The translations under genes and the position numbers were made by a program. From NCBI GenBank assembly GCA_964388555.1, contig CAYMAY010000004.1, positions 1 to 45,812 on the forward strand: DNA of 45,812 bases, in the 5' to 3' direction. The notes beneath the pieces were generated by a model. The model was not told where the DNA came from. It did not search any database and worked only from the letters and a program-made list of their open reading frames with translations. This document shows positions 18,726 to 45,070 of the stretch, piece by piece. Origin of the DNA: an uncultured Lachnospiraceae bacterium (lineage in GTDB: Bacteria > Bacillota > Clostridia > Lachnospirales > Lachnospiraceae). How positions within the stretch are numbered: the first letter of the stretch is position 1; each line of letters opens with the position of its first letter.

Positions 18726-18959
18726 ATGAGTTTTGAAAGAATCAGGGAGCTTATAGCAGAAATCGTAAGTTGCGATATAGATGAGATAACGATGGATACC
18801 AACATGAAAGAGGATCTCGGAATGGATTCCCTTGATGCTATGGAGCTTGTGATGTCCATAGACGAAGAACTTTGCGTTACCATTCCGGATGAAAAGGTTC
18901 CCGAGATGGTTTACGTAAAAGATCTTGTTGCCTACGTCGATGAAGATCTGGGAGAATGA
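18726..18959 (+). CDS. acyl carrier protein (orphan ACP)
   Basis: 77 aa, acidic, with the phosphopantetheine site DLGMDSLDAMELV. No fab or other lipid-synthesis genes are nearby. Confidence 0.8.
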   Translation: MSFERIRELIAEIVSCDIDEITMDTNMKEDLGMDSLDAMELVMSIDEELCVTIPDEKVPEMVYVKDLVAYVDEDLGE

Positions 18960-18982: not shown

Positions 18983-19027
18983 AAAATGTCGCATCAAGTG
19001 CTTATAATGCATTTAATGCGGCATTTT
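18983..19027. terminator. bidirectional hairpin between the convergent ACP and kinase genes
   Basis: AAAATGTCGCAT (18983-18994) pairs with ATGCGGCATTTT (19016-19027) with one G-U pair. Both sides have A/T-run flanks. Confidence 0.6.
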
Positions 19028-19047: not shown

Positions 19048-19461
19048 TTAAAAGCTTTTTTTCACGCGAAGGATATTTTTACCGTCTTTGTATTCATATG
19101 TTACTTCGTCTGTCATTTTTTTGACCATAAATATGCCAAGCCCCCCTATCTTGCGTTCTTCAGCGCTTAACGTAATATCGGGCTCGGGTGCGGTAAGCGG
19201 ATCGAATGGCTTGCCCTCGTCCGTAAATGTAAGTGTTATGAGGCGTGACTTATTTGTTATTTCAAGGGCAATATTAGCATCGCCGCCGTTGGCGTACGCA
19301 TAACGCGCTATATTGCTGAAAATCTCGTCTGTTGCTATAGACATTGTCATTATCATTTCCGGTGAGCAGCAGGCTTCTTCAAGTGTAGTTTCAATAAATT
19401 CGGCAACTATCGGCATGCTGTCCAGCTTAGCCGTAACCGTTATATCTTTCTTAACATCCAT
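19048..19461 (-). CDS. RsbW/SpoIIAB-like anti-sigma-type serine kinase (HATPase_c_2)
   Basis: 137 aa with DEIFSNIARYA (N-box-like) and GGLGIFMVKKMTDEV (G-box). Size is typical of partner-switching kinases. Confidence 0.8.
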   Translation of the reverse strand: MDVKKDITVTAKLDSMPIVAEFIETTLEEACCSPEMIMTMSIATDEIFSNIARYAYANGGDANIALEITNKSRLITLTFTDEGKPFDPLTAPEPDITLSAEERKIGGLGIFMVKKMTDEVTYEYKDGKNILRVKKSF

Positions 19462-19515
19462 GTTAGTTTTTCCTTTTGTTATAGTATTATCTAACAGCAG
19501 CTCTGATGCCTTTGT

Positions 19516-21168
19516 TTATGATCTGCCTTTATATTCAAGGCACAGCATTGTTATATCGTCAAACTGATCGGCTTCTCCGACAAAGGCTTCGATGTCTTTT
19601 TTAACCGTGATCAATGTTTGCTTTGTATCGCATGAGCATGTTTTATTAAGGGCATTGCACATGCGATCAAGTCCGTAAAATTCCTGTGATGCGTTTTCGG
19701 CCTCGGGTATGCCGTCTGTGTAAAGGAAAATCCTGTCGCCGATTCCAAGAGTAAGGGAACCTTCTTTATATCTTATGCCTTCCATTCCGGCAAGAACAAA
19801 CCCGGGTTTAACATTGTATTCTTCATAGCTGCCGCCGGCTCTGTATATGAATGGCGGCTCGTGTCCGGCATTCACGTAGTTAAACTCGCCGGTTTCGGTA
19901 TCAAGTACGCCTTCGAATGCCGTTATAAACAGCCCCTCATTATTGCAGGAACAGAGCACATCGTTAACGGTGGAGAATACCTCGTTTAAGGCTATGCCGG
20001 GCTTTGTGTGGTCTTTTATCAGCGTTTTACCTATGACCATAAAGAGCGCCGCCGGTATTCCCTTGCCTGATACGTCTGCCATTACGACAGCCAGGTGGCG
20101 GTCATCAACCATAAATAAGTCGTAGAAGTCGCCGCCCACCTCCTTTGCGGGATTCATGGTAGCATATATATCGAATTCCGTCCGCTCGGGGAACGGCGGG
20201 AATATACACGGAAGCATGTCGGCCTGTATCTTCGTGGCCAGCGCAAGCTCTGTGCCGATGCGTTCTTTGTCCCTGGTCTCGCGGACAAGGTTTAACATGT
20301 ATTTCTTAAGATCTGATGTCAACGTTACAAGAGACGTCGAAAGGGATTCTATCTCGTCCTCCGAATGTATGCCGGGGTCGGAGTAGGAGAGCTTTTCCGG
20401 GTCGTCCTGTGTGCTGCTGTCGGTGACAAATTTTTCCGCCGCCGCCTGAATCTTAGAGACGGGTTCTATTACACTGCGGGACATCCAGCGGTAGATCAGC
20501 GCAAGGAATATCACGACCAGGGCGACAGTGGCGATAAGGACTAAGATAATGTAGTGTCCCAAAACGGCATATATATCGTCTACCGATATGTCCACGGCAA
20601 GTACGGCGATGGCCTCACCGTCAGAATTTATGAGGGGACACAATGCGGTATAATCGTGACCGTAGCTCGTTTCGTTGGAAAAGAAGCTTATTTCGTCGGA
20701 ATCCATGGCGTCTATGTAATGCTGTACAACGTCGGGAGAATAGGAATCTCCGGTGAGCTGACCAAGCCGGGCAAGAGTGTCGGATTCATGGTCTTCCTCG
20801 TACTGCGTAACTCCGGCAATGATATTCATCATGTTGTCGGTAGCGTCCGTGTTGAGGGGCTTAACGACGTACACGTATTCTATTTCGTAATTTTCTTTGA
20901 TCTCATTCAGCAGACCCTGAAGTTCTTCATACTCCTCGGATTGTTCGCCGGTTTCGATGCATTCCTCAAGATCGTCTGTATCAGTCATATCCGTAACGAA
21001 TTCGATAATACCGATCATATATGTATTGTATTGCTTATACATTCCGTTTATATACAGTATTGCACCTATAAAGCCTGTGGCGAAGCATGAGAGAATGCAA
21101 AATATGGCACAGCCGATAAGTATTTTGCGCCGCAGCGGACGTTTGTAGATTTGTTTTTTGTTCTTCAT
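19516..21168 (-). CDS. membrane-bound sensor PP2C (SpoIIE/RsbU family) serine phosphatase
   Basis: 550 aa. Order of elements: TM, an extracytoplasmic Cache-like region of about 170 aa, TM, a HAMP-like linker, then a PP2C core (ATKIQADMLP...EVGGDFYD...MADVSGKGIPAALFM...TDGIPEA). GGGAGGA SD at 21178-21184. Confidence 0.85.
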   Translation of the reverse strand: MKNKKQIYKRPLRRKILIGCAIFCILSCFATGFIGAILYINGMYKQYNTYMIGIIEFVTDMTDTDDLEECIETGEQSEEYEELQGLLNEIKENYEIEYVYVVKPLNTDATDNMMNIIAGVTQYEEDHESDTLARLGQLTGDSYSPDVVQHYIDAMDSDEISFFSNETSYGHDYTALCPLINSDGEAIAVLAVDISVDDIYAVLGHYIILVLIATVALVVIFLALIYRWMSRSVIEPVSKIQAAAEKFVTDSSTQDDPEKLSYSDPGIHSEDEIESLSTSLVTLTSDLKKYMLNLVRETRDKERIGTELALATKIQADMLPCIFPPFPERTEFDIYATMNPAKEVGGDFYDLFMVDDRHLAVVMADVSGKGIPAALFMVIGKTLIKDHTKPGIALNEVFSTVNDVLCSCNNEGLFITAFEGVLDTETGEFNYVNAGHEPPFIYRAGGSYEEYNVKPGFVLAGMEGIRYKEGSLTLGIGDRIFLYTDGIPEAENASQEFYGLDRMCNALNKTCSCDTKQTLITVKKDIEAFVGEADQFDDITMLCLEYKGRS

Positions 21169-24080
21169 TAGTTTTTATCCTCCCTGCCCGAGAATCTGTG
21201 GAACAGTCCGAGTATTCCCGTCGAAGCACCGAATATTAAAAGCGCAAATCTTATGTTAATTGACTCTATTATGCCGGCAAATATACTGGGTCCTAAGGAC
21301 TCGCCGATATTTTCCGAGAAATTATATATTCCCATCGCCCTGTCGGCGCCGTACGCCCTGGTAGCTCTAAGACCGAGATAATACGTCTGCTGTACGGGCT
21401 TTCCGAAGGATGAGCTTATACCCATTATAACAAGAGCCAGGATCATTCCGCCTATGGTTGGCGTCAGGGCATATATGACCATCGCCGCTATATTAAGTAT
21501 GAGGGCGATATACATTGAACCTGCGCCGAATCTTTTTGAAGCCCTGTCTGTAAGGGCGTTGGAAAGCAGTATTGCCGTCTGCGAATATATCATTATAAAC
21601 AGCGTACAGAGGGACTCACCGTATCCGTGGGCATCGCAGAAAAGCGGTACGTAGTAAAATACAAAGCTGCTGAATATGATATAAGGATTCTGGATGAGCA
21701 CCATAAATCCCAATACCTTTTTGTCGGATACATATCTACGGGTCGGAATGCTTCCGGAATCGTCTGTTTCGTCTGAGAGAGATCCGAGAAGACCGTCTAT
21801 CTTTTTAAGTAATACTCCGGAGATCAAAGCCAGGATCGCCCAGGAAATACATACGACGATAAAGACGTTCTGTCTTCCTGCCATCACGGCAAGCAGGGAA
21901 CCCGTTATCATTCCGAAGTTAATTCCCGAAAGATACGCGCTGTTGTATATGGAAAGACCACGTGTGCGGTTCGGCGTATCGCTTATGCAGCTTATGAGAA
22001 TGTAGACGGCGTTTGTGGAAAGACCTACGCCTATGCCGTCCAGCACCAGCCCGGCGAATGCCGTGTAATAATACGGGAACATGAATATAACAAGATTTCC
22101 CAAAAGAGAGCACATCGCCGAAATGATAAGCAGGCGTTTAAAGCCGAATCGTTTTATAAGGCGATTGCAGAACAGCGACATTACGCCTATGAGAAACAGG
22201 TTTATGGTTATGGGCAATGCTCCCGCGAAGCTTGCGAAGGCGCCGTCGAATATCTCCGCCTGACGCAGCAGGTATGCCGGCAGGAATGAAGCCGTCATGT
22301 TATAGGCGGCAAATATCAAAAATACCAGTATCCTTAATACGTGCCACGGCATGGCTTTCGTTGTCTTGAGAGATTCCGCATGGTAATCGTTGTAATTGCC
22401 GACGTACATGATTATCTCTACGGACACTATCCATACCAGCATGAGCATTACGAGAACGGAGAGGATAACACTCTGCATCATCTCCGAGATGGTGTCAGAT
22501 ATAACATAGGATTCTATGCCTACCGCCACGGCACCGCAGATCTCGCCGGTCGAATCCGTAACGGGAACCTTAACGGCGATGTATGTGCCGGATATATCCT
22601 CGACATTCTGATTCCACACGGCCTCGCCCGTATTTTTAAGCGTCACAAGGTCGTTCTGCTCATCTTCGTTTAAGGGGTAGTAAGCGCCTACGGACTGATC
22701 GAGATACGCTACAGCGTAGCCGGCAGAGCCGTCTGCGGGAATCTTAAGAATATTGCAGTATACCTGACGGCAGAACGCCACATCCATGGGGAAAGAACGT
22801 TCCATTATATCGCAGAGACGGTTGTAGGATTCGCCGCCGAATCCGCCGTTTTCTTCTATATCGGTGATATCGTCGCCATCTATCTGAGCTGCCACGGTAT
22901 ATGCCGAAACCTCGACCTGCTCACGTATCTTATCACCGTATTCGTCGGCGAATGAGTTGGTGAGTATGGTGCATATGATCACGGAAACGATGGCCACGGC
23001 CACGATGACGACACCCGACACGCGCTGTATGCGGGTGAGCCTGATGAGGGTGATAAATCTTATTACGCGCAGGCATACCATGATCAAAAGAACGACGCAG
23101 ACAACGGCGCAGATGATCCACAGAATCTGGAAGATCATTTCAGGCATGCCCTTTGAAAGCTCCGAGAATATGAATTCTTCATCGCCTTCGATCACATGAA
23201 TGCCGTCTTCGGCCGAAAGGATAAAGCCGCCATTTGCGGTAAATCCCGCAGTGACAGAGCCGCAAGAGTCCGTAGCAAACGAGCCGGACCGGGTTTCCTC
23301 ATTTACGAGACGCACCTCGTTGTCTACTATGTCGGTAAAATACAGGTCGTCGTCGTACATGGCGAGTTTGTACGGCACCACATAGCCGTCATCATTCTGA
23401 TAGGAATATATGACTTCGCCCGTGGTTTCGCCGTTGTTATATTTTGTTATGATGCCGGACTTGTCCAGTACGAACGTATGATCATCTGAAAAAAATACAT
23501 CGCTTACGGCATTTACGGCGTTTTCGTAAGGGATGCTTAAATCTCCTACGATTATCTCGTTTTCACGGCATTCTGCAAAGCATACATTGCCGTCAATGCG
23601 GGTTATTCCGTAAATGCTGCGCTTGCCCCTCTCCAGATCGGAGTGGTCAGACAGATAAACAGTTTCTATGTATTTTCCGTCGTTATCCAGATGTATAACA
23701 GCCTCCGTCGAAACAGACATTTCATCCCAAACGGATTCGGAGACATATATCCCGGATTCGTCAGCGTATATGTCGTCGATATAGGAAAAATCGCCGTTTT
23801 CGGTGCTTATATTTTCAACGGAAAAACGTATTTTGCCGTTCTCGTCAAAGCCTATGAGACGGGAGTGACCGCTGTCAGTCGCAACAAAGCCGCCATCCGC
23901 CATCTGTTCCGTCTGATACGTAAGATCCAGTATTGTGGTGGAGCTTGTGGCTTCCGATAAAGGCATGCGGAACATAAAACAAAAAGCGAAAAGCAGAGCC
24001 GTTATTATGATCAGAACCGCGTCTCTGCGGGTAAAACGGCGCAGCGTGATATATTCCTTAAGACTTTTAATGAATGACAT
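21168..24080 (-). CDS. fusion protein: two extracytoplasmic sensor-like domains (repeat/beta-propeller-like plus Cache-like) joined to a 12-TM MFS transporter core
   Basis: 970 aa. TM1 is at about aa 22-40, followed by about 290 aa of repeated D/G-rich strands and a TM hairpin. A Cache-like block of about 190 aa follows (GTYIAVKVPVTDSTGEICGAVAVGI). Then come 12 hydrophobic helices with an MFS loop motif (NRLIKRFGFKR). GAAAGGAG SD at 24091-24098. Confidence 0.75.
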   Translation of the reverse strand: MSFIKSLKEYITLRRFTRRDAVLIIITALLFAFCFMFRMPLSEATSSTTILDLTYQTEQMADGGFVATDSGHSRLIGFDENGKIRFSVENISTENGDFSYIDDIYADESGIYVSESVWDEMSVSTEAVIHLDNDGKYIETVYLSDHSDLERGKRSIYGITRIDGNVCFAECRENEIIVGDLSIPYENAVNAVSDVFFSDDHTFVLDKSGIITKYNNGETTGEVIYSYQNDDGYVVPYKLAMYDDDLYFTDIVDNEVRLVNEETRSGSFATDSCGSVTAGFTANGGFILSAEDGIHVIEGDEEFIFSELSKGMPEMIFQILWIICAVVCVVLLIMVCLRVIRFITLIRLTRIQRVSGVVIVAVAIVSVIICTILTNSFADEYGDKIREQVEVSAYTVAAQIDGDDITDIEENGGFGGESYNRLCDIMERSFPMDVAFCRQVYCNILKIPADGSAGYAVAYLDQSVGAYYPLNEDEQNDLVTLKNTGEAVWNQNVEDISGTYIAVKVPVTDSTGEICGAVAVGIESYVISDTISEMMQSVILSVLVMLMLVWIVSVEIIMYVGNYNDYHAESLKTTKAMPWHVLRILVFLIFAAYNMTASFLPAYLLRQAEIFDGAFASFAGALPITINLFLIGVMSLFCNRLIKRFGFKRLLIISAMCSLLGNLVIFMFPYYYTAFAGLVLDGIGVGLSTNAVYILISCISDTPNRTRGLSIYNSAYLSGINFGMITGSLLAVMAGRQNVFIVVCISWAILALISGVLLKKIDGLLGSLSDETDDSGSIPTRRYVSDKKVLGFMVLIQNPYIIFSSFVFYYVPLFCDAHGYGESLCTLFIMIYSQTAILLSNALTDRASKRFGAGSMYIALILNIAAMVIYALTPTIGGMILALVIMGISSSFGKPVQQTYYLGLRATRAYGADRAMGIYNFSENIGESLGPSIFAGIIESINIRFALLIFGASTGILGLFHRFSGREDKN

Positions 24081-25245
24081 AGTTGCCGTACTCCTTTCGA
24101 TTCAGGGGAGCGTCGAAGATAGTGTGGACATTGTCCTGAGACAGAAATTCCGGCAGAAGAATGCACGAAAGATTAAAGGCGTTTTTGTGCGCTTTGCGGC
24201 ATTTTCTGTAAGAATCCGTTTCGTCCATGCTGTCCACCTCGAGGATGTTTTCAGCACCGTAAAGATAATACGGCAGGGCAGGCATGGATATGTAGTCCTT
24301 GATGGATTCCAGTTTTCCCGCAGCCTTTGTAAGGGAATGCAGCGTTTTGCCCCGTTCGATAAAGGGCGCGCGTGCCTCGTAATATTTGCGCGTCAGGTCT
24401 TCACTTCTATCGTGAACCACATCACAATGCACATTAGGATATAATTCGCGAAGCCTGTCTATTACGTGCAGATATTTATCGCAGATTTCGTGGACAATGG
24501 CGCGGAAGTCGCTGATGGCCTTGTCCTTTACGTCCTTTGGTGTGTTTTCAAGAACTGCGCTCATATATTTTATGTAGGACATATCAGGCAGCGGGATGAC
24601 AACGGGAACATTCAGAAGCCTTGCGATATCGAAGGGATATTTGAGGAAAAACCATTCCTGTGGCGTGAGCCCCGTCTTCATGTTCTCAAACCGCAGATCA
24701 GATACATCAGAACCTCGTTCCAACAGAAATCCCCCCAGATCCTCATCCCGCAGCGATGAGGAATAAGGTTTTCCCGAATTAAAGTCGAAGCGTTCAAGAC
24801 TGCCGTCCTTAAGAAAAACATCGACAGTCACCTCATTTGAACCGAAAAGGCAGGGACCGCCTTCAACAGCCGAGCTTACGCCGTCATCAAGAGCCTTACG
24901 GAACGAATCCAAGCCGGACGTGAAATAAGGAAGCTTCGTTTTGGCGGAATATTCCAGACCGTTAAGCTGGGGCAGAATCTCTGTTATCACATTGTAATCA
25001 GCTATTTCAACCGTATTTTTATAGACGAGGGAATATTTGCCGTCGGCGTTTTTAAACGGCTCATAAAATTTCCTCGAGACTATCTGAAAATCCAGCATTT
25101 TCGGGTTACTCTTGTCATATACGGTGTTGTCGATGGAAATCCCTGCGTCTGCAAGGACTTCGGCGATCGATGCTTTGTTTATATTCATAAAATTATGCCA
25201 ATCATCTGAAGTCAATAATGTATGATATCGAAGTACAGGCTCCAA
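24067..25245 (-). CDS. hypothetical cytoplasmic protein (family not recognised)
   Basis: 392-aa ORF with no TM segment or signal peptide. The TTG start lies 5 nt after the nadE stop (first ATG at 25188), and the 3' end overlaps the next gene by 14 nt. Coding status is supported by the operon packing. Confidence 0.6.
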   Translation of the reverse strand: MEPVLRYHTLLTSDDWHNFMNINKASIAEVLADAGISIDNTVYDKSNPKMLDFQIVSRKFYEPFKNADGKYSLVYKNTVEIADYNVITEILPQLNGLEYSAKTKLPYFTSGLDSFRKALDDGVSSAVEGGPCLFGSNEVTVDVFLKDGSLERFDFNSGKPYSSSLRDEDLGGFLLERGSDVSDLRFENMKTGLTPQEWFFLKYPFDIARLLNVPVVIPLPDMSYIKYMSAVLENTPKDVKDKAISDFRAIVHEICDKYLHVIDRLRELYPNVHCDVVHDRSEDLTRKYYEARAPFIERGKTLHSLTKAAGKLESIKDYISMPALPYYLYGAENILEVDSMDETDSYRKCRKAHKNAFNLSCILLPEFLSQDNVHTIFDAPLNRKEYGNYVIH

Positions 25246-25250
25246 CCGCT

Positions 25251-27161
25251 TTAAAGATTTTCAAGCTGATTCAGCCATATATTAGCGCAGGCATCGCTGG
25301 GCATTCTAAGATCGCCTCTCGGTGAAACGGCAACGGAGCCGACCTTCGGACCGTCAGGCAGGCACGAACGCTTGAACTGCTGGCTGAAAAATCTCCTGTA
25401 AAATGTCTTGAGCCACTTCAATATGAATTCACGGTCGTATACGCCGTCAAACGAAAGAAGCGCGATCCTGAATATCTTTGCGGGCGAATAACCTATTCTC
25501 AACATATAGTATAAGAAGAAATCGTGTAATTCGTACGGTCCCACCAGCTCTTCCGTCTTCTGAGAGATAACGCCGTCCTTTGGAGGCAGGAGCTCCGGGC
25601 TGACCGGTGTATTCAGAACGTCCGTCAGTATCTTGGAGAGCTTTGAATCGCCGCAGGTATCCGCGTAATAACGCACGAGATGGCGTACAAGTGTCTTCGG
25701 TACGGAACAGTTTACGGCGTACATGGACATATGATCGCCGTTGTACGTTGCCCAGCCAAGCGCAAGCTCAGAAAGATCGCCTGTTCCGATTACCATTCCG
25801 CCGCTCTGGTTGGCGATGTCCATAAGGATCTGCGTACGTTCTCTCGCCTGGGAGTTTTCATACGTAACACTGTGGTCGGCCGGATCGTGACCTATGTCTC
25901 TGAAATGGATATTTACGGCCTCTTTTATATCTATTTCACGCAGCGTGGCTCCAAGAGAAATGGAAAGTGCGCAGGCGTTGTTGTAGGTTTTATCGGTGGT
26001 GCCGAAACATGGCATCGTAACGGCAGTGATCTTACTGCGCTCTATTCCCGCAAGGTCGAATGCACGAGCCGTAACGAGAAGTGCAAGTGTGGAATCCAGA
26101 CCGCCTGAAATACCTATAACGGCACTCTGGCAATGAGTATGTTCAAGACGCTTTTTAAGGCCCATGGCCTGAATGTTAAGGATCTCGTCGCAGCGCTGCT
26201 CACGGTTTGCCTTGTCCGACGGAACGAAGGGCTGCGGATCGAAACGTCTTGTAAGAGTTGTTTCCTCGACTGCCAGGTCAAATTCTACCGTCTTGTAGCC
26301 GTCATTTGACTGTATCGGATACGTTGTCATGCGTCTGCGCTCGCTTACCAGCCTGTCCACGTCTATCTCTGAATAAATTGTTTCGTTTGTAAAGCGCTCT
26401 GCCTCGCGCAGAACAGTTCCGTTCTCGCATATGAGAGAGTGACCGGAAAATACAAGATCTGTCGTGGATTCGCCATCCCCGGCGCTTGCATAAATATATC
26501 CGCTTATAAGGCTGGCGGACTGCGAGCAGACAAGCTGTTTTCTGTATCCGGCCTTGCCTGTCATTTCATCGCTGGCGGAAAGATTGACTATAACTGTCGC
26601 TCCCGCAAGGGCGTGGGAGATGCTGGGGGGCATCGGAACCCAGAGATCTTCACATATTTCCGCGGAAACTTTAAGATGGGGAACCGACTTGCACGAGAAT
26701 ATTATGTCAGTACCAAATGGCACATCCTCGCCGAAAAGAGATATGGTATCCGGCGTCTTATTTCCTGAGGAAAAATGCCTTGCCTCGTAAAATTCGTTGT
26801 AGTTCGGTATGTACGTTTTCGGAACTGCTCCGAGAATTTTGCCGTGATTAAGCGCGGCTGCGCAGTTGAAGAGCTTCCCGTTATGCTCAAGGGGAAGACC
26901 CACGAAGATAAGGGCGTCCACATCGGCTGTTTCTTCCATTATATGTTTAAGTGCGATGAGACATTCTTTAAGAAGCGTTTCCTGCCAGAAAAGATCCCGG
27001 CATTCGAACCCCGATATGCAAAGCTCCGGCAGCACGATGACCTTTGCCTTGTTGCCGGCAGCCTCTTTTATCTTATCTATAATAGCTTCCGCGTTTGCAC
27101 CGCAGTTGGCGATCTGTATCTTTGGAGTGGCCGCAGCCACTTTTATAAATCCGTTATTCAT
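25251..27161 (-). CDS. nadE: glutamine-dependent NAD(+) synthetase
   Basis: 636 aa. The N-terminal nitrilase/CN-hydrolase domain has LPELCISGF and ICEDLW. The C-terminal NAD synthase domain has the SGGLDS PP-loop. Confidence 0.92.
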   Translation of the reverse strand: MNNGFIKVAAATPKIQIANCGANAEAIIDKIKEAAGNKAKVIVLPELCISGFECRDLFWQETLLKECLIALKHIMEETADVDALIFVGLPLEHNGKLFNCAAALNHGKILGAVPKTYIPNYNEFYEARHFSSGNKTPDTISLFGEDVPFGTDIIFSCKSVPHLKVSAEICEDLWVPMPPSISHALAGATVIVNLSASDEMTGKAGYRKQLVCSQSASLISGYIYASAGDGESTTDLVFSGHSLICENGTVLREAERFTNETIYSEIDVDRLVSERRRMTTYPIQSNDGYKTVEFDLAVEETTLTRRFDPQPFVPSDKANREQRCDEILNIQAMGLKKRLEHTHCQSAVIGISGGLDSTLALLVTARAFDLAGIERSKITAVTMPCFGTTDKTYNNACALSISLGATLREIDIKEAVNIHFRDIGHDPADHSVTYENSQARERTQILMDIANQSGGMVIGTGDLSELALGWATYNGDHMSMYAVNCSVPKTLVRHLVRYYADTCGDSKLSKILTDVLNTPVSPELLPPKDGVISQKTEELVGPYELHDFFLYYMLRIGYSPAKIFRIALLSFDGVYDREFILKWLKTFYRRFFSQQFKRSCLPDGPKVGSVAVSPRGDLRMPSDACANIWLNQLENL

Positions 27162-27326
27162 GTATGTTCTCCTGTTTAGACGATTGATTCATCTTTAAAT
27201 TTTAATTCATTACGGTATTTTAGGCAACAAGTTTACACGCCAGCGAAAAAAATAAAATGACAAACTCCGCGGTTTGTGACATACTTGATGAATATATACA
27301 CAAAGAATTCAGCAGGAGACAGGACT

Positions 27327-30300
27327 ATGGTAAACAATATCGATTCCGTAGTTAGCATAGGACATGAAAAGCGTGTAGAGGGGCTTAACAGTGCCTACAA
27401 TGCCCTTTCGGGTATCTTCTTTTCAATGCACCGCGTTGACGTTCTAAATAATACATATTCCGGTATCAAAACCACATCCACTATCCAGCATCTGACCATA
27501 CCAAATTCGGATAATTATGATGATAACGCCGATCGTATCATTCGCGGCGTTTCTTCGCAGTGGAGCCGCGATGAGGCGCTTCGTTTTGTGGAAAGAAGCA
27601 CGCTGCCTGAGCGCATGGCCGGAAAAAATCACATCGCAATGGAGTTTCTATCTTACGCGGCTGAACCGTGTAAGCTCCATTTCTTTAGAGAGGGAGAAGA
27701 TGTAAACGCGCCTCTGAAGTATGTGATCTTCGCAGTGGAAAAAGTGGATGAGGAAAAAACCCAGGCAATCATCAATGCCCTTTCACATGATTACAGAAAT
27801 GTATTCTGGATCAATCTGGATGATGGCGAAGCCCGTGTGCTCAAAATGAAAGACTATATTGGCGAGGGCATAGACGAGAAGGAAAATCAGAGATTTTCTT
27901 ATGGTGAAACCAGTGTTGCATATGTGGCAAAACGTATACATCCCGACGACAAAGAACAGCAGAAAAAAATGATCTCGCTGGAGCATTTGCAGGAGCATTT
28001 CAAGGATCACAATGAGCTCACCGGAAGTTATCGTGTTTTGGTGGATGGCGTGGTGCATCATTTCAGTTACGTATTTTATAAGCTTGCAAATCTCAATTCG
28101 GTTGTTGCGGGATTTCGAAATATCGATGACATTATTGAAAGACACACTGCCGAGGAACGTCATCAGCGCGAAGTGGAGCAGGCTTATCAGAACCGCTTAA
28201 AAGAGCAGCTTATGATATTCAATTCGCTTTCAAGCAATTTCAGGAATGTATATTTTGCGGATCTTAATGAAGAAACGGCAAGGATACTGAAGCAGGATTC
28301 GAGATATGTAGATCTTCTTGATCTGGATGGGTCAGAAGTTTTTCCGTTTGTCGCTGTACTCAAATACTGGATCGACAATGTGGTATACGAAGAAGACAGA
28401 GAAGAAATCCGCAAAGTGTTCGAGCTGGATAATATCAAACGTGCAATGGCAGCTCATAAAGAGCTTACGGGAAATTACCGCAGTCTGATCGATGGGGAGA
28501 TCCATCACTTCCAGTATAATCTGGTCAGTGTCAGCGAAGACGGTGTTAAGGCTGTTTTGGGCTATCAGAATATCGATGAAATCGTGGAACAGCACATAGC
28601 ACAGGAAAAGAAAGAAAGGGAATTGATGGAAGCGCGCAATCGCGAAGCAAGGGAGCGCGCGGAGGTTATTTCGTCTCTTTCAACCATATATTCCACTATT
28701 TTCAGAGCCGAGATCGACACACATAACTATGAGGTGCTGAATAGCGTTTCTCTTATGGATGATCTTGCCGGCGTTGACGGAAATTTTGACGAAGTAAAAG
28801 AAGAAATCATCACGGCGTTCATGGCACCTGAAATGAGAGATCAGATGCGGGAATTTCTGGATCTTAATACACTGGCGGCCCGTCTTAAAAATGTCAAGAC
28901 AGTTTCAACGGAATACCGCAATCCTGAGGGAAGATGGTTTCAGGCTCGTTTTATCACAAAGCGAAGAGACAAGGCGGGAAATGTCAAGGAAGTTCTCTAC
29001 GTTGCCCGGGACTGCACAGACGAAAAAATGCAGGAGCTGGAGCAGCAGAATCAATTGACAAATGCTTTGGCGGCGGCTCAGCAGGCCAGCAAGGCAAAGT
29101 CAACATTCCTTAACAGTATGTCTCACGATATCCGTACGCCTATGAATGCCATCATAGGATTTACGGCGCTTGCACAGACCCACATCAATGATCAGGAAAA
29201 GGTAAAGGATTATCTGGCTAAGATAAGCACGTCCAGTACTCATCTGCTCAGCCTTATAAATGATATTCTTGATATGAGCCGTATTGAGAGCGGTACCGTT
29301 AAGCTCGATGAAAAACCGGTGCATATTCCGGATATTCTGCATGATCTGCGGACGATGATACAGGGTCTTGTAAGCTCCAAGAACCTCAATCTCTATATTG
29401 ATACTCAGGATGTCATGCACGAGGATGTTATCACCGATAAGCTTCGACTTAATCAGGTGCTCATTAATATCGTTGGAAATGCCATTAAGTTTACACCGCC
29501 GGGCGGAGATATTATTATCCGACTTCTGGAGAAGCCTTGCGAAATGAAGAATCACGCGACATACGTATTTTCTGTCAAGGATAACGGAATCGGTATGTCG
29601 GAGAAATTCCTTGAGCATATATTCGAGTCGTTTTCAAGAGAATACAGCACAACGGTCAGCGGCATTCAGGGAACGGGTCTCGGAATGGCCATTACAAAGA
29701 ATATCGTTGACATGATGGGCGGCACCATAACCGTCGACAGCGTAGAGGGAAGAGGTTCATTGTTTACCGTCACGCTGAACATACGCCTTACAAATGTAGC
29801 CGTGCAAAACGAGCCCATACCGGAGCTTCTGGGCGCTAGAGCCCTGGTTGTGGATGATGATCTTGACACCTGCAGGAATGTCAGCAAGATGCTGCGTGAC
29901 ATTAAGATGCGTCCTGATTGGACGGCGTCCGGCAGGGAAGCCATTGTCCGTGCTCAGGATGCGGCGGAAATGAAGGACGAGTACAAGGTTTATATCATCG
30001 ACTACCTCATGCCGGATATGAACGGAATCGAGACGATCCGCAGAATCCGTCGCGTTATCAGCGAAGAGGCATCGATAATCGTTCTTACCGCCTACGATTG
30101 GGCAGACATCGAATACGAGGCAAGGGAAGCCGGCGTTACGGCGTTTGTGTCAAAGCCGCTGTTCATGTCGGAACTCAGGAATGCGTTAACCCAGACAAAA
30201 GAAGAGAATCTCGGTGCGCAGGAGGGAAAAGAGGTTTACGATTACAGCGGAAAGCATGTCCTTCTGGTTGAGGATAATGAACTTAACCGTGAGATCGCAA

Positions 30301-30632
30301 CGGCTATATTAGAGGAAGCCGGCATCAAGGTTGACAGTGCTTCAGACGGAACGGAAGCCGTTGATATTATGTACAAGGCGGATGATGACGAATATGATCT
30401 CATATTTATGGATATTCAGATGCCCAAGATGGACGGCTACACCGCAACCCACGAGATACGAACATTCGCGAACAACAAGAAGGCCAATATTCCTATCGTT
30501 GCCATGACGGCAAACGCGTTTGACGAGGACAAAAAGAAATCCCTCGAAGCAGGAATGAACGGCCACATCGCGAAGCCCATCAGCATCGAACAGATTGCGA
30601 AGGTTCTCGATGATATATTTGCAGGAAAGTAG
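27327..30632 (+). CDS. soluble hybrid sensor histidine kinase with tandem PAS-like modules and two receiver domains
   Basis: H-box SHDIRTPMNAI (His codon 29124-29126), N-box NAIKFTPPGG, G-boxes DNGIGM and GTGLGM. Two REC domains have Asp codons at 30000-30002 and 30411-30413. No hydrophobic helices. ATG 27327 lies 7 nt after AGGAGA; the ORF track opens at GTG 27276. Confidence 0.9.
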   Translation: MVNNIDSVVSIGHEKRVEGLNSAYNALSGIFFSMHRVDVLNNTYSGIKTTSTIQHLTIPNSDNYDDNADRIIRGVSSQWSRDEALRFVERSTLPERMAGKNHIAMEFLSYAAEPCKLHFFREGEDVNAPLKYVIFAVEKVDEEKTQAIINALSHDYRNVFWINLDDGEARVLKMKDYIGEGIDEKENQRFSYGETSVAYVAKRIHPDDKEQQKKMISLEHLQEHFKDHNELTGSYRVLVDGVVHHFSYVFYKLANLNSVVAGFRNIDDIIERHTAEERHQREVEQAYQNRLKEQLMIFNSLSSNFRNVYFADLNEETARILKQDSRYVDLLDLDGSEVFPFVAVLKYWIDNVVYEEDREEIRKVFELDNIKRAMAAHKELTGNYRSLIDGEIHHFQYNLVSVSEDGVKAVLGYQNIDEIVEQHIAQEKKERELMEARNREARERAEVISSLSTIYSTIFRAEIDTHNYEVLNSVSLMDDLAGVDGNFDEVKEEIITAFMAPEMRDQMREFLDLNTLAARLKNVKTVSTEYRNPEGRWFQARFITKRRDKAGNVKEVLYVARDCTDEKMQELEQQNQLTNALAAAQQASKAKSTFLNSMSHDIRTPMNAIIGFTALAQTHINDQEKVKDYLAKISTSSTHLLSLINDILDMSRIESGTVKLDEKPVHIPDILHDLRTMIQGLVSSKNLNLYIDTQDVMHEDVITDKLRLNQVLINIVGNAIKFTPPGGDIIIRLLEKPCEMKNHATYVFSVKDNGIGMSEKFLEHIFESFSREYSTTVSGIQGTGLGMAITKNIVDMMGGTITVDSVEGRGSLFTVTLNIRLTNVAVQNEPIPELLGARALVVDDDLDTCRNVSKMLRDIKMRPDWTASGREAIVRAQDAAEMKDEYKVYIIDYLMPDMNGIETIRRIRRVISEEASIIVLTAYDWADIEYEAREAGVTAFVSKPLFMSELRNALTQTKEENLGAQEGKEVYDYSGKHVLLVEDNELNREIATAILEEAGIKVDSASDGTEAVDIMYKADDDEYDLIFMDIQMPKMDGYTATHEIRTFANNKKANIPIVAMTANAFDEDKKKSLEAGMNGHIAKPISIEQIAKVLDDIFAGK

Positions 30633-37513: not shown

Positions 37514-38878
37514 ATGATAAATATTTTTGAAGTTTCCGAAACAAACGAGATGATCGCCAGCGAAAATCTCGACGTAAGAACCATAACCCTTGGAATCAGT
37601 CTGCTGGACTGCATAGATTCTGATATAAACGAGCTTAACCGGAAAATCTACGAAAAAATAACGACCACGGCGAAAGATCTCGTATCAACGGGAGAGGATA
37701 TATCCGCGGAATACGGAATACCCATCGTAAACAAGAGAATTTCCGTAACACCTATAGCACTTATCGGATCCGCGGCTTGCAAAACAGAAGAGGATTACGT
37801 TTCCATCGCAAAGACGCTGGATAAGGCAGCACACGAGGTCGGCGTTAATTTCCTCGGCGGATTTTCGGCGCTTGTATCAAAGGGAATGACACACTCCGAT
37901 GAGCTTCTTATAAGAAGCATCCCGAAGACGCTGGCACAGACAGAGAGAGTCTGCGCGTCGGTAAATGTAGGTTCCACGAAGACGGGCATAAACATGGATG
38001 CTGTAAGTCTTATGGGAAAGGTAATAAAAGAGACGGCATACGAGTCGGCGGACGACAGCTGCATGGGTTGTGCCAAACTCGTAGTATTCTGCAACGCGCC
38101 GGATGACAATCCGTTTATGGCAGGTGCATTCCACGGTGTTACCGAGGCGGATGCCATCATAAATGTAGGCGTTTCCGGACCGGGAGTTGTTAAGCACGCC
38201 CTTGAAGGCGTTCGCGGTGAGAACTTCGAAACGCTTTGCGAGACGATAAAGAAAACTGCCTTTAAGGTAACGCGTGTCGGTCAGCTTGTCGCGAAAGAGG
38301 CATCAAAGAGACTGAACATCCCGTTTGGAATAGTCGATCTTTCCCTGGCGCCTACTCCTGCGGTGGGCGATTCGGTTGCTGAGATCCTTGAGGAGATAGG
38401 TCTTGAGTCGGTGGGTGCACCGGGAACAACGGCTGCCCTTGCGTTGCTTAACGACCAGGTCAAAAAAGGCGGTGTTATGGCATCATCATACGTTGGCGGA
38501 TTGAGCGGAGCATTTATTCCTGTCAGCGAAGACCAGGGAATGATAGATGCGGCGAACAGCGGCGCACTTACGTTAGAAAAGTTAGAGGCGATGACCTGCG
38601 TCTGCTCCGTGGGACTGGATATGATTGCTATACCGGGCGATACAACGGAGAGCACACTTGCGGGAATAATAGCCGATGAGATGGCTATCGGAATGATAAA
38701 TCAGAAAACGACGGCGGTGCGCCTTATACCCGTTATTGGAAAAGGCGTGGGTGATACCGTAGAGTTCGGCGGTCTTTTGGGCTACGCGCCGATAATGCCT
38801 GTAAGTAAATATTCCTGCGAAAAAATGGTTAGCAGAGGCGGAAGAATCCCCGCCCCGATCCATAGCTTTAAAAATTAA
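37514..38878 (+). CDS. UPF0210 (DUF711, PFL-like) family protein
   Basis: 454 aa, ...[16 protein letters not shown]...; conserved pairing with the ACT protein. Confidence 0.8.
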
Positions 38879-40131
38879 TTTTTGATGATCATCTGCTTCC
38901 GGTATTCATGCGTAAAGGGCGCGTTGAATTTATGGGCATAGACGCTTTCGTACAAATTGGAGGCGAAGAGCTCTTTATCGTAGGAACCGTCCTTTAAAGC
39001 GGATGGCTTTGGACACAGCGAAGCCCTTGAATTGGCTTTTGCCGCAGAAAGCAATGCGGAGTTTGATTTGTTTATGCCGAGAAGCCTTATATGATTTGCA
39101 TTTACGGCGCTTTCAAAATCTGCATCAGTCAATCCTAAGATAATATGGATCAGTGCACGGCATATGTGAGAGTATGTCGTGCTTTTATTTTTAAGAAGCA
39201 TGGCAAACTGCGAAAATGTTCTGAAATCATTCTCGTGCTGTTTTATGCGCCGGGCAAGGTCGATACCGACATCGCGAAAATTCGAAAGCGATTCCGCGGA
39301 TTCTCTCATCAGAATATAACGAAGTATAAGAGAAAAGTCATCGATGCATAACGTCTTCTTGAATAAATCCCATATGTCGAAATTTGCGGTGATGGAAGCG
39401 GGAAGGGCGCTGAAGGCATCGCCGAAACGCTTATCGGCAAGAGCCAGCCTTATTGCTGAAGCAGAGCTGTATTTTGAATTTAAAGCCTTGTCGTTATAGC
39501 CGCCGCCAAGCCTCGTAAGAGTTTTCGGAACAATATTACTTTTCAGCTTCTTAAGTGCCAGACAGTATTCAATCCCCAGTATATTATTGGGAGAGCTTAA
39601 GAATGTATTTATGGTTTTTTTATTCAAAACAGCATCAGTATCCAAATCATATTTTTTAATGAACCCCGGGTCATTGCCGAAAACCGACGCAAAGGCCGCA
39701 GCTCTCGCAGCGGGAAAACTCATTCCGCATTTAAGATTGCTGCGAAGAGCATCGGAGTATTCCACGGGTTCGTCAGCAAATATGCCGGAAATCACGTCAA
39801 AAAGACGCATATCGCCGGATTCGCTTCCAAACCAAAGCTCGTCTATTACGCCCAGGTTATCAAGAAGTGAAACAGCGCCATATGCAAAATCTCTTGCGCT
39901 TCCCGTGGAAAAAACGACCGGCAGCTCCGGAACCATATCGGCACCGCATATAACAGCCATTTCGGCACGCCTGAATTTATCCCAGATCGCGCATTCGCCG
40001 CGCTGAACATAGTCGCCGCTCATCACTACGACAACGCTGTCCGCACCGGAAAGTTTTTTGGCTTCATCTATAAAATATTCGTGTCCCTTGTGAAACGGAT
40101 TAAATTCCGCAATTATTCCAATCGTTTTCAT
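38875..40131 (-). CDS. tmcAL: tRNA(Met) cytidine acetate ligase (UPF0348/YlbM nucleotidyltransferase family)
   Basis: 418 aa; the N-terminus [21 protein letters not shown] carries an HxGH-type nucleotidyltransferase motif. Confidence 0.75.
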
Positions 40132-43839: not shown

Positions 43840-44470
43840 TTAATCAGCATTTGAACCGTCAATAACCTCGCTGATCGTCTGCATCAGCACGTTTACATCT
43901 ATGGGTTTGGCGATATGACCATTCATTCCCGCATCATACGCGTTTTTCTTATCCTCTTCGAACGCATTGGCTGTCATGGCGATGATGGGTATGTTAGCCT
44001 TGTCGGTATCTTCTATTATAAAATCATAGTACGCATATCCTGCGCGCTCCGATTTACGCTCCCGCAGGGTGAATGTTATTGTGCCGCCTTCAGGTGTAAA
44101 CTTGACGGCATTTGCCAGGATGTTCATGAGAGCACGGTTTACATGGAGCGAATCCGCATATACATATATGTTTTCAAGATCAATCGTCTTGTCTATATAG
44201 GTGAGCCCTTTAGCCTCAACATCCGAATGAACAACATTCTTTACAAGCTGCAGCTGTTCGGGTATGCACACCGGAGCGGTTTGCCACTTCCGCCTTATCA
44301 ATGGCCTGTCCGCTTTCGCGGATGTCATATACAAAATCATAGTCTTCATCGGATATAACATCTTTAAGGAGACTTCTGTCGTTTGATGCGATTATGTCGG
44401 CACCGTCGGTGATTACGAATGTGCCGGTCTGATCCGGATCAAAACCGTCCAGAAGATCCCTTCGGTTGAA
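43840..44470 (-). pseudogene. decayed remnant of a Cache-sensor hybrid histidine kinase
   Basis: Frame A (44470-44219) reads like a Cache fragment ([20 protein letters not shown]). A +1-shifted frame carries an HATPase N-box region ([14 protein letters not shown]). That region is joined at about 44002/44003 straight to a REC C-terminus ([19 protein letters not shown]...GMNGHIAKP). The H-box, the G-boxes and the receiver Asp are all missing. Confidence 0.65.
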
Positions 44471-44472
44471 TA

Positions 44473-44787
44473 TTACATCATTGCGTTTTCGTGATCTTGT
44501 AATTCATGAAATACATCATCAACAAATACAGTATTATTTTCTATTCTGTATAATATGAAATATCTATGTTTAAGAAAATTTATCCGTCGATATCCAAGCT
44601 TTCTTAATTTGGGATTATCACATAATTTTAAACTTCCTGCCGCGCTTTTTAGTTTCCCTATTGTTTCTTCAAAATCATCAAGAAGATTTCCTGCCGCCTG
44701 TTCGCTATTCTTTTCGAACAGCAGATATTGTATGTATCGATTTAAAGATTCTTCTGCCTCGGATGTCACGAATACTTTATAATCCAT
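44473..44787 (-). CDS. type II toxin, RelE/ParE superfamily
   Basis: 104 aa. It overlaps the upstream antitoxin by 11 nt. The pattern ...YRRINFLKHRYFILYRIENNTVFVDDVFHE is typical of ParE/RelE toxins. Confidence 0.8.
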   Translation of the reverse strand: MDYKVFVTSEAEESLNRYIQYLLFEKNSEQAAGNLLDDFEETIGKLKSAAGSLKLCDNPKLRKLGYRRINFLKHRYFILYRIENNTVFVDDVFHELQDHENAMM

Positions 44788-45070
44788 ACTTTCCCCTCAT
44801 GTCTGAAATTACTGATTCAGCGTCTCGATAGTTTCCGCTTTTTGCAGATTCTCTGGACTGTTCCAGACTTTGAAGAAAATCCTCTTCCGTCATGGACACA
44901 TATGGATTTGAAATTGTTTTTTTTATTTCGAACGGAAATCCATTATATGCGACGGCCTGCGTTAAAAACATTCTTATTGCGGAAGTTGTATCTGTTCCAA
45001 GATCCTTAAAAAGTCTGTCAGATTTATTTTTTAAGTCATCGTCTACTCTTATTTGAATTGTACTTGCCAT
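44777..45070 (-). CDS. type II antitoxin, RelB/DinJ family
   Basis: 97 aa; N-terminal ribbon-helix-helix IQIRVDDDLKNKSDRLFKDLGTDTTSAIRMFLTQ; GGAGG SD. Confidence 0.8.
   Translation of the reverse strand: MASTIQIRVDDDLKNKSDRLFKDLGTDTTSAIRMFLTQAVAYNGFPFEIKKTISNPYVSMTEEDFLQSLEQSRESAKSGNYRDAESVISDMRGKYGL

Follow-up and report, generated by a model that had tools for sequence, protein, structure and literature searches.

Partner-switching modules, in which a PP2C phosphatase and an RsbW-like serine kinase act on a STAS-domain antagonist, are usually read as regulators of sigma factors, as in the RsbU/RsbV/RsbW-sigmaB and SpoIIE/SpoIIAA/SpoIIAB-sigmaF switches of Bacillus subtilis. SypE of Vibrio fischeri carries an RsbW-like kinase and a PP2C phosphatase in one polypeptide and acts on the STAS protein SypA, with an output that is not a sigma factor. 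Partner switches with non-sigma outputs are established: the SiaABCD system of Pseudomonas aeruginosa comprises the PP2C SiaA, the kinase SiaB, the STAS-like SiaC and the diguanylate cyclase SiaD (PMC7647112), and further cases, SypE/SypA among them (PMC10120452), have been reviewed (PMC8256260). Here, we describe a locus with components of this type in a 45,812-nt stretch of DNA (hereafter, the window) from an uncultured Lachnospiraceae bacterium (contig CAYMAY010000004.1, positions 1 to 45,812). Five minus-strand genes at its centre encode a glutamine-dependent NAD+ synthetase (nadE), a cytoplasmic protein designated UNK, a Major Facilitator Superfamily (MFS) transporter fused to sensor domains, a membrane PP2C phosphatase and an RsbW/SpoIIAB-like kinase (Table 1). 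The real unit is very probably a four-gene cassette composed of UNK, the sensor-MFS, the PP2C and the kinase. We read it as a module that probably works by partner switching with a non-sigma output, controlling the UNK/exporter pair, and assign this reading an overall probability of about 0.5. The cassette crosses phyla and ties partner-switch parts to an ectodomain-bearing transporter and an unannotated protein family with an aminoacyl-tRNA synthetase (aaRS) fold, with no sigma factor seen.

The conserved cassette and its partner switch

A scan of one genome per species for relatives of UNK provided 63 loci with flanks of up to 10 kb, in which the other cassette genes were located by tblastn with the window's proteins. 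The gene order UNK, sensor-MFS, sensor-PP2C recurs across these loci. Adequate flanking DNA is available for 34 of them, and among these the MFS gene is present in 31, the PP2C gene in 30 and both in 28, compared to nine for the kinase gene and none for nadE. The hosts, represented by isolates and metagenome-assembled genomes, are members of the Lachnospiraceae, Oscillospiraceae, Erysipelotrichaceae, Anaerovoracaceae, Selenomonadaceae and Coriobacteriia/Eggerthellaceae; they span at least six families and two phyla and include many gut and rumen anaerobes. The linkage is reciprocal, because MFS homologs found independently all have a member of the UNK family directly upstream, and PP2C homologs at 47-50% identity sit inside the same cassette. 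Tight or overlapping spacing is conserved as well, with most UNK/MFS/PP2C junctions measuring between -11 and +17 nt, and UNK is translationally coupled to the MFS gene. Further, the pairwise divergences of UNK, MFS and PP2C co-vary (r = 0.89-0.94, Mantel p <= 0.001). An earlier annotation of the locus (the sequence-only reading) had seen a distinct membrane signalling/transport module here. For the non-nadE genes this holds, and their conservation is evident whether the neighbourhood is entered from the UNK, the MFS or the PP2C side. The four cassette proteins had no matches to the PADLOC models of anti-phage defence.

Some variants of the cassette look degenerate. Two Sellimonas loci (L071:6319-9068 and L072:6319-9068) retain a 232-aa MFS fragment, a PP2C and a kinase and have no UNK gene, and another locus (L006:11121-13246) keeps UNK next to an MFS shortened to 237 aa. 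Separately, a recurrent set of membrane-protein genes (neighbour clusters c4, c16 and c12) precedes UNK in loci of the Oscillospiraceae and Clostridiales (L032:1-11092, L039:1-7594, L014 and L027); by sequence alone, c4 looks MscS-like and c12 looks like a channel with RCK-type domains.

The sequence-only reading had named a lack of neighbourhood conservation as grounds for its own refutation. The neighbourhood is conserved for the UNK, MFS, PP2C and kinase module but not for nadE, which that reading had counted as a member of the unit. The gene adjoins the cassette in 0 of the 63 loci and was found there only in two close relatives (L064 and L066, 77-99% identity), the adjacency being already gone in a relative at 58% identity (L065). 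Thus, nadE is a lineage-specific neighbour that lies outside the conserved unit. The spacing of 5 nt previously given between the nadE stop and the next start depends on a TTG start for UNK. This start adds a 19-residue extension that is present in no homolog (homologs are about 373 aa long), and gene calls in the loci of the 99% (77%) identical relatives (L064 and L066) begin at the equivalent ATG and give a 373-aa UNK. The UNK start is therefore probably the ATG at 25188, as judged from these sequence comparisons, and the gap to nadE is then 62 nt. Because this spacer contains no terminator, nadE may be co-transcribed with the cassette in the source organism. Yet the proposal of a five-gene operon with a mechanistic tie between NAD synthetase and the genes for signalling and transport is largely refuted, and we give it next to no credence: the adjacency is absent from all 63 loci and is lost at 58% identity, and nadE encodes an ordinary equivalog of full length, with NAD synthase and CN_hydrolase domains (Pfam/NCBIfam). 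What speaks for such an operon is the common strand, the 62-nt spacer (unstructured as well as free of terminators), the adjacency kept in the two close relatives and an MFS homolog (P0171) whose extra Sugar_tr domain may resemble niacin-transporter-type MFS proteins.

The PP2C phosphatase has the metal-binding Asp motifs of its family (GGDFYD, DVSGKG, TDG and DD.T), which vary little or not at all among 35 homologs. It had been described as a Cache-PP2C. The PP2C part of this label is sound; the Cache part finds no Pfam match in the window protein and is backed indirectly by homologs, in which HAMP (6/35) and dCache_1 (3/35) domains were identified, and by profile comparisons with hhalign. 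Residues 25-216 of the PP2C family aligned with residues 363-544 of the MFS family over 167 columns (probability 90.2%, E = 1.5e-6), and an independent alignment of the sensor domains only gave E = 4.3e-5. As the longer alignment includes the flanking transmembrane (TM) helices, we conclude that the phosphatase and the transporter carry paralogous TM-sensor-TM modules. A paralogous sensor on both proteins suggests a concrete way for them to sense together.

Inspection of the kinase sequence revealed the N-box and G-boxes. Its scores against the NCBIfam models are low: 38 bits for RsbW (NF003144), with a cut-off of 145, and 22 bits for SpoIIAB, with a cut-off of 135. Kinase orthologs are encoded in cis in 11 of the 63 loci, at varying positions, and an HATPase_c_2 domain is linked to the cassette in three forms. 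It is free in the window; in the closest named relatives, Ca. Alectryocaccobium among them, it forms the C-terminal part of PP2C fusion proteins of 690-691 aa (L047:4087-6162 and L065:14231-16303). In the third form, it is the C-terminal domain of a ~580-aa protein with many predicted TM helices, which substitutes for the free kinase or occurs alongside it, looks MATE/flippase-like when its sequence is judged by eye, and is encoded directly upstream of UNK (L020:8107-9852, L008:4961-6712 and L016:2-436). To our knowledge, a fusion of a MATE-like protein to HATPase_c_2 has not been described.

No STAS protein and no sigma factor are encoded in the 45.8-kb window, as the sequence-only reading had noted. 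A search of the six-frame translation with a STAS hidden Markov model derived from the related loci retrieved no STAS match at E <= 0.01, tblastn and Pfam retrieved none either, and Pfam identified no sigma factor. Related loci do encode the antagonist: in 10 of the 63 loci the cassette has a canonical STAS gene in cis (PF01740, ~100 aa, with the phosphorylatable Ser in an SSAGL or SSSGL motif), and such a gene also adjoins it in L068, L073 and L074. The complete order STAS-UNK-MFS-PP2C-KIN, KIN being the kinase gene, occurs in L068 and L015. These STAS neighbours weaken the earlier suggestion that UNK and the MFS protein stand where a STAS protein would be expected. Kinases that adjoin a STAS gene are orthologous to the one in the window, at 41-50% identity; the phospho-target of the window's kinase is therefore probably a STAS protein encoded outside the window, elsewhere in the source genome.

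These data also bear on whether the cassette is an ordinary sigma-factor switch whose STAS protein and sigma factor are encoded elsewhere, with UNK and MFS as neighbours or members of the regulon. Sigma genes can be unlinked and 45.8 kb of the genome is visible, the STAS genes found in cis are canonical, and the kinase matches the RsbW and SpoIIAB models, albeit far below their equivalog cut-offs. However, no sigma-like cluster recurs in the 63 loci, and the PP2C is linked to UNK and MFS far more consistently than to the kinase and STAS. The PP2C gene is, in addition, translationally coupled to the MFS gene, and a sigma-factor switch leaves the sensor module common to both proteins unexplained. 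For these reasons, we regard it as improbable.

UNK and the sensor transporter

The sequence-only reading of the MFS protein as a transporter with two external domains is borne out by the AlphaFold2 (AF2) model and by Pfam matches in homologs. The model (pLDDT 83.6) consists of a first TM helix, an all-beta domain, a TM hairpin, an alpha/beta domain and a 12-helix core, an architecture kept in at least 38 homologs. Only strands are predicted in external domain 1, which has a weak SGL match in the window protein; the propeller families represented in the homologs are DUF5128, which is six-bladed (9/38), and SGL (8/38). External domain 2 is located between TM3 and TM4 and its modelled topology, helices followed by an antiparallel sheet, is compatible with a Cache domain. 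The sCache_3_2 match of the window protein (E = 0.002) scores 18.6 bits versus a gathering score of 28.4, and the same family was detected in 32 of the 38 homologs at E <= 0.01 (best 1.7e-6), with dCache_1 in nine. All 38 homologs match MFS_1 (PF07690), and the AF2 helices of the core span residues 579-965. Foldseek comparisons of the modelled core with VMAT1/2, VAChT, LmrP and NorA (TMt 0.75-0.79) indicate a resemblance to DHA1-type exporters and antiporters. Literature searches for Cache-MFS fusions found no description of a propeller-plus-Cache MFS. The homolog P0171 (1450 aa; L069:2782-7134 and L070:1283-5635) has a second, N-terminal MFS domain (Sugar_tr) fused to the sensor-MFS, and in both loci its gene is followed by one for a Na+/alanine symporter.

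UNK had been labelled an ORFan, a label that its 359 homologs at E <= 1e-3 do not support. The family is nonetheless small and closed: an exhaustive profile search of 1.84 billion representative proteins recovered 138 representative clusters and no bridge to known families, and UNK has no match in Pfam or NCBIfam. The AF2 model of UNK is of high confidence (pLDDT 94.3, pTM 0.92) and had 43 Foldseek matches in the PDB at E <= 1e-3. All 50 matches listed are tryptophanyl- or tyrosyl-tRNA synthetases (TrpRS or TyrRS), with probabilities of 0.99-1.0, E values of about 1e-4, alignments of 280-337 columns and TM-scores of 0.30-0.46. The predicted structure matches the Rossmann-fold catalytic domain of class Ic topology, at the level of the fold only. 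A search of all PDB sequences with the single UNK sequence returned nothing meaningful, and the same search with a profile of 63 sequences returned 0 matches at E <= 10. The hhalign probability against the TyrRS of M. jannaschii was 0.2%, and no homology to Pfam tRNA-synt_1b was found. With a fold match and no support from sequence, UNK is thus best described as having a class Ic aaRS-like fold and not as a member of that family. Genuine TrpRS or TyrRS genes, sought in the fetched loci for a comparison profile, were not found there.

Neither ATP-binding signature of the aaRSs was recognized in the UNK family alignment. No His is conserved in residues 80-130, where the succession of secondary-structure elements, used in place of a superposition, would put the HIGH signature; among the His residues, H259 and H334 alone are invariant. 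A KMSKS-like loop was not found; the conserved C-terminal block reads PELLSxDGxHTIF. Equivalences proposed by eye between PDMSY and ADLHA and between DETD and GxDQ were dropped as unsupported in light of the hhalign probability against TyrRS. Across the 63 sequences (41-77% identity), 31 positions are invariant and many of these are occupied by polar or charged residues, a pattern that suggests a catalytic or ligand-binding site.

A subfamily of long UNK proteins (430-505 aa; L053-L063 and L067, for example L060:362-1879 and L054:9584-10957) has its first ~50-70 residues replaced by a longer charged segment that looks like a coiled coil, and its MFS and PP2C partners are more divergent. Other long matches to UNK were set aside as uninformative. 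Two are cadherin-repeat proteins (P0297 and P0305), one has only an eCIS core domain (P0237), four have no Pfam domain (P0190, P0251, P0294 and P0295), and P0078 looks like a read-through of an upstream channel gene.

The properties of UNK and the transporter could also be those of a nutrient transceptor, in which an amino acid or aromatic amine is imported, or no more than sensed, by the MFS protein, UNK serves as a non-catalytic cytoplasmic ligand binder (a pseudo-aaRS) and the PP2C reports availability to the cell. Such a role is consistent with the absence of both ATP-binding signatures, with the binding of aromatic amino acids by the TrpRS/TyrRS fold and the transport of monoamines by VMAT-like relatives, and with the Na+/alanine symporter gene adjacent to the cassette in L021, L037, L069 and L070. 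It is at odds with the many invariant charged residues of UNK, which suggest catalysis, and with the DHA1 relatives being mostly exporters, so we hold it to be quite unlikely.

Export is central to another explanation, in which the cassette belongs to secondary metabolism: UNK would be a tailoring or immunity protein, the MFS would export a product of the nonribosomal peptide (NRP) type, and the PP2C, kinase and STAS proteins would regulate its production or export. DHA1-type MFS proteins are typical exporters and, as a review describes, aaRS-like proteins occur in natural-product pathways (PMC12945691). Further, two distinct arrangements place a gene for a multi-module NRP synthetase (NRPS) immediately upstream of the cassette and in the same orientation. 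In Blautia-type loci (L073:1-12662, L074:1-12662 and L024:3-14046), the order is NRPS, STAS, (KIN), phosphopantetheinyl transferase, acyltransferase_3, PP2C, UNK, MFS; in Anaerovibrio (L008:3-12994), it is NRPS, MATE-HATPase_c_2, UNK, MFS, PP2C, KIN. Such NRPS genes are present, however, at only 2 of the 63 genomic loci, and most loci, the window included, have housekeeping neighbours. A stand-alone PP-binding gene does adjoin the window's kinase gene but it is convergent with it and, therefore, outside the operon. On balance, we see little likelihood that the cassette is a secondary-metabolite module.

Features of the window

Table 1. Features of the cassette region and of its flanks, in window coordinates.
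Feature	Position	Strand	Basis
nadE (glutamine-dependent NAD+ synthetase)	25251..27161	-	NF002730, 894 bits vs cut-off 473
UNK, 373-aa cytoplasmic protein	24067..25188	-	start revised from TTG 25245 to ATG 25188
Sensor-MFS fusion, 970 aa	21168..24080	-	MFS_1 E = 5e-29
MFS external domain 1 (residues 48-309), all-beta, six-bladed-propeller-like	23154..23939	-	AF2 and Pfam
MFS external domain 2 (residues 402-523), single Cache-like alpha/beta domain	22512..22877	-	Pfam and AF2
MFS transporter core (residues about 579-965), DHA1-like	21186..22346	-	Pfam, AF2, Foldseek; weak TIGR00880 match
Membrane sensor PP2C (SpoIIE/RsbU-type), 550 aa	19516..21168	-	SpoIIE PF07228 E = 5e-43
PP2C N-terminal TM-sensor-TM module (residues 25-216)	20521..21096	-	hhalign vs MFS module
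RsbW/SpoIIAB-like serine kinase, 137 aa	19048..19461	-	HATPase_c_2 PF13581 E = 1e-22
Hairpin 3' of the kinase gene, between convergent genes	18983..19027	-	folding vs shuffles
Candidate sigma-70-like promoter 5' of nadE (TTGCCT, 17 nt, TAAAAT)	27199..27227	-	9/12 matches

The sequence-only reading was accurate for most of the layout. The five co-oriented minus-strand open reading frames (ORFs) lie where it had placed them, and its domain calls for nadE, MFS_1, SpoIIE and HATPase_c_2 agree with Pfam and NCBIfam. The 14-nt overlap of UNK and MFS (24067-24080), the TAATG in which the MFS stop and the PP2C start have one base in common (21166-21170) and the 54-nt gap before the kinase gene were all recovered, as were the Shine-Dalgarno-like sites GAAAGGAG (24091-24098) and GGGAGGA (21178-21184). 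The hairpin that it had singled out as a terminator (-21.1 kcal/mol, z = -3.14) was matched in stability by 0 of 200 shuffled sequences and probably acts as one; its inner loop was too long for the simple terminator scan, which overlooked it. By contrast, the internal spacers of the five-gene stretch are unstructured (z about 0 vs shuffles). Two minus-strand terminator-like sites (24855-24871 and 21830-21843) are inside coding sequence, and were attributed to chance because the total of sites in the scan equals the shuffle expectation. Sigma-70-like promoter matches in the nadE region are no commoner than in shuffled sequence. No riboswitch or T-box was detected upstream of the cassette in the window or in seven related loci. 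The only T-box leader detected, in L033 (6362-6624, 103.7 bits), lies some 3.4 kb upstream of the cassette; it is an ordinary element that precedes the gene for leucyl-tRNA synthetase and is unrelated to UNK.

Apart from a hybrid histidine kinase and a toxin-antitoxin pair, the remaining ORFs of the window are, by Pfam, housekeeping genes. The stand-alone PP-binding gene (18726-18959, plus strand) encodes a 77-aa protein that is acyl carrier protein-like; it follows genes for LOG-family and CPBP-protease proteins, away from fab genes, and this arrangement is kept in L064 and L066. Divergent from nadE, the hybrid histidine kinase gene (27276-30632, plus strand) encodes HisKA, HATPase_c and two receiver domains and is not conserved beside the cassette in other loci. 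The N-terminal ~590 residues of this kinase have no Pfam match and contain an internal duplication, with two motif copies that end in ...HHF.Y...NIDDI/EIVE.H.A.E. Farther away, a HIGH_NTase1 family protein (38875-40131, minus strand; PF05636 E = 4e-115), unrelated to UNK in spite of the common nucleotidyltransferase/aaRS theme, belongs to a family that includes the tRNA(Met) cytidine acetate ligase TmcAL. A 173-aa ORF (43840-44361, minus strand), whose only matches, to HATPase_c and receiver domains, are partial, is probably what is left of a hybrid kinase and adjoins a ParE/RelB toxin-antitoxin pair (44473-45070, minus strand).

Mechanism and comparison with known systems

In the mechanism that we envision, the transporter and the phosphatase would read the same extracytoplasmic cue through their paralogous external modules; alternatively, the two modules could pair and pass the state of the transporter to the phosphatase. 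The PP2C would then dephosphorylate a phospho-STAS protein encoded outside the window, in opposition to the RsbW-like kinase, and the switch would act post-translationally on UNK/MFS, the only universally linked cytoplasmic partner. UNK would most likely be an enzyme or a ligand-binding subunit for an amino-acid-like small molecule, putatively exported by the MFS, and the cassette would couple the synthesis and export of this compound to external sensing. As a whole, from sensing and STAS switch to UNK/MFS output and small-molecule export, this scheme is tentative and falls somewhat short of an even chance. A more specific version is unlikely. It would make UNK a new class Ic aaRS-derived enzyme family that has no ATP-binding motifs and makes or charges an amino-acid-derived molecule, with the VMAT-like exporter, the Cache modules and a sigma-independent partner switch closing the loop. 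The molecule, or a competing cue, would be read outside by the Cache modules of the exporter and the PP2C. If true, many gut and rumen anaerobes would possess a signalling circuit that contains its own synthase, exporter and receptor.

Several observations argue against a partner switch that controls UNK and the transporter. STAS is never encoded in cis in the window's own clade (L047, L064, L065 and L066), where the kinase and PP2C may have a STAS-independent target. More generally, STAS and the kinase are missing in cis from most loci, and in those the PP2C may have a different substrate. Nor is the core of the cassette without exceptions: the MFS gene is absent in L004 and L014, the PP2C gene is absent in L037, L054 and L063, and UNK stands without either partner in L032, L039 and L056. 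A species phylogeny held in common would also make the divergences of the three proteins co-vary. Lastly, the fold match of UNK to the aaRSs is moderate, given its TM-scores, and is accompanied by no sequence or profile homology; UNK may be a scaffold with no catalytic activity.

The cassette is common in gut and rumen anaerobes, where small-molecule exchange matters and few signalling circuits are characterized. Its cultured hosts, which include Blautia sp. MSJ-9, [Clostridium] aminophilum and Pseudobutyrivibrio sp. MD2005, make it experimentally tractable. Blautia sp. MSJ-9 carries the whole STAS-KIN-PP2C-UNK-MFS set; the cassettes of [Clostridium] aminophilum DSM 10710 and Pseudobutyrivibrio sp. 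MD2005 have neither STAS nor kinase in cis. The analysis also changes the annotation of the locus: the UNK start is revised, the 'hypothetical protein' becomes a member of an aaRS-fold family, and nadE is no longer a functional partner in an operon.

Each part of the cassette has described counterparts, from which it differs in specific ways. The predicted structure of UNK matches the class Ic enzymes TrpRS and TyrRS but has an extra N-terminal domain of ~85 residues. Cyclodipeptide synthases are non-canonical aaRS derivatives without the HIGH and KMSKS ATP-binding signatures. UNK is likewise devoid of both, yet it has no Pfam match to the cyclodipeptide synthases and none of them is among the 50 structure matches listed. 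The 12-TM core of the transporter superposes on the DHA1-type proteins VMAT1/2, VAChT, LmrP and NorA; to this core the cassette protein adds ~575 N-terminal residues that form four TM helices and the propeller-like and Cache-like ectodomains.

The partner-switch components are of known kinds. The same three protein families make up the sigmaB and sigmaF switches of B. subtilis, although STAS is encoded only in related loci and not in the window, and no sigma factor accompanies the cassette in the window or in the 63 loci. The cassette kinase also scores far below the equivalog cut-offs, and its PP2C has an extracytoplasmic Cache-like sensor. The PP2C-kinase fusions of L047 and L065 resemble the arrangement of SypE, whose domain order and central receiver domain are nonetheless absent here; in the window, phosphatase and kinase are two separate genes. 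Literature searches on Cache-MFS fusions, on aaRS-like proteins with PP2C and on partner-switch neighbourhoods found no description of the cassette. Similarly, Pfam, NCBIfam, PADLOC and the searched literature contained no trace of the conserved coupling of such components to a propeller-plus-Cache MFS or to an unannotated aaRS-fold family, nor of a paralogous sensor module common to transporter and phosphatase.

The comparison with SiaABCD is instructive for the non-sigma output that we propose. In SiaABCD, and probably in the cassette, a membrane PP2C and a kinase, encoded together, balance the phosphorylation of a small antagonist, and the output of SiaABCD is an enzyme and not a sigma factor. 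Nevertheless, the window's PP2C is not an ortholog of SiaA (NF038263, 45.7 bits vs a cut-off of 700), no GGDEF protein is present in the window or among the recurrent neighbours of the cassette, and the antagonist that relatives encode in the cassette is a canonical STAS protein (PF01740) and not of the SiaC type. The linked partners of the cassette are, instead, the sensor-MFS and the aaRS-fold protein, and its phosphatase has a sensor module in common with the transporter.

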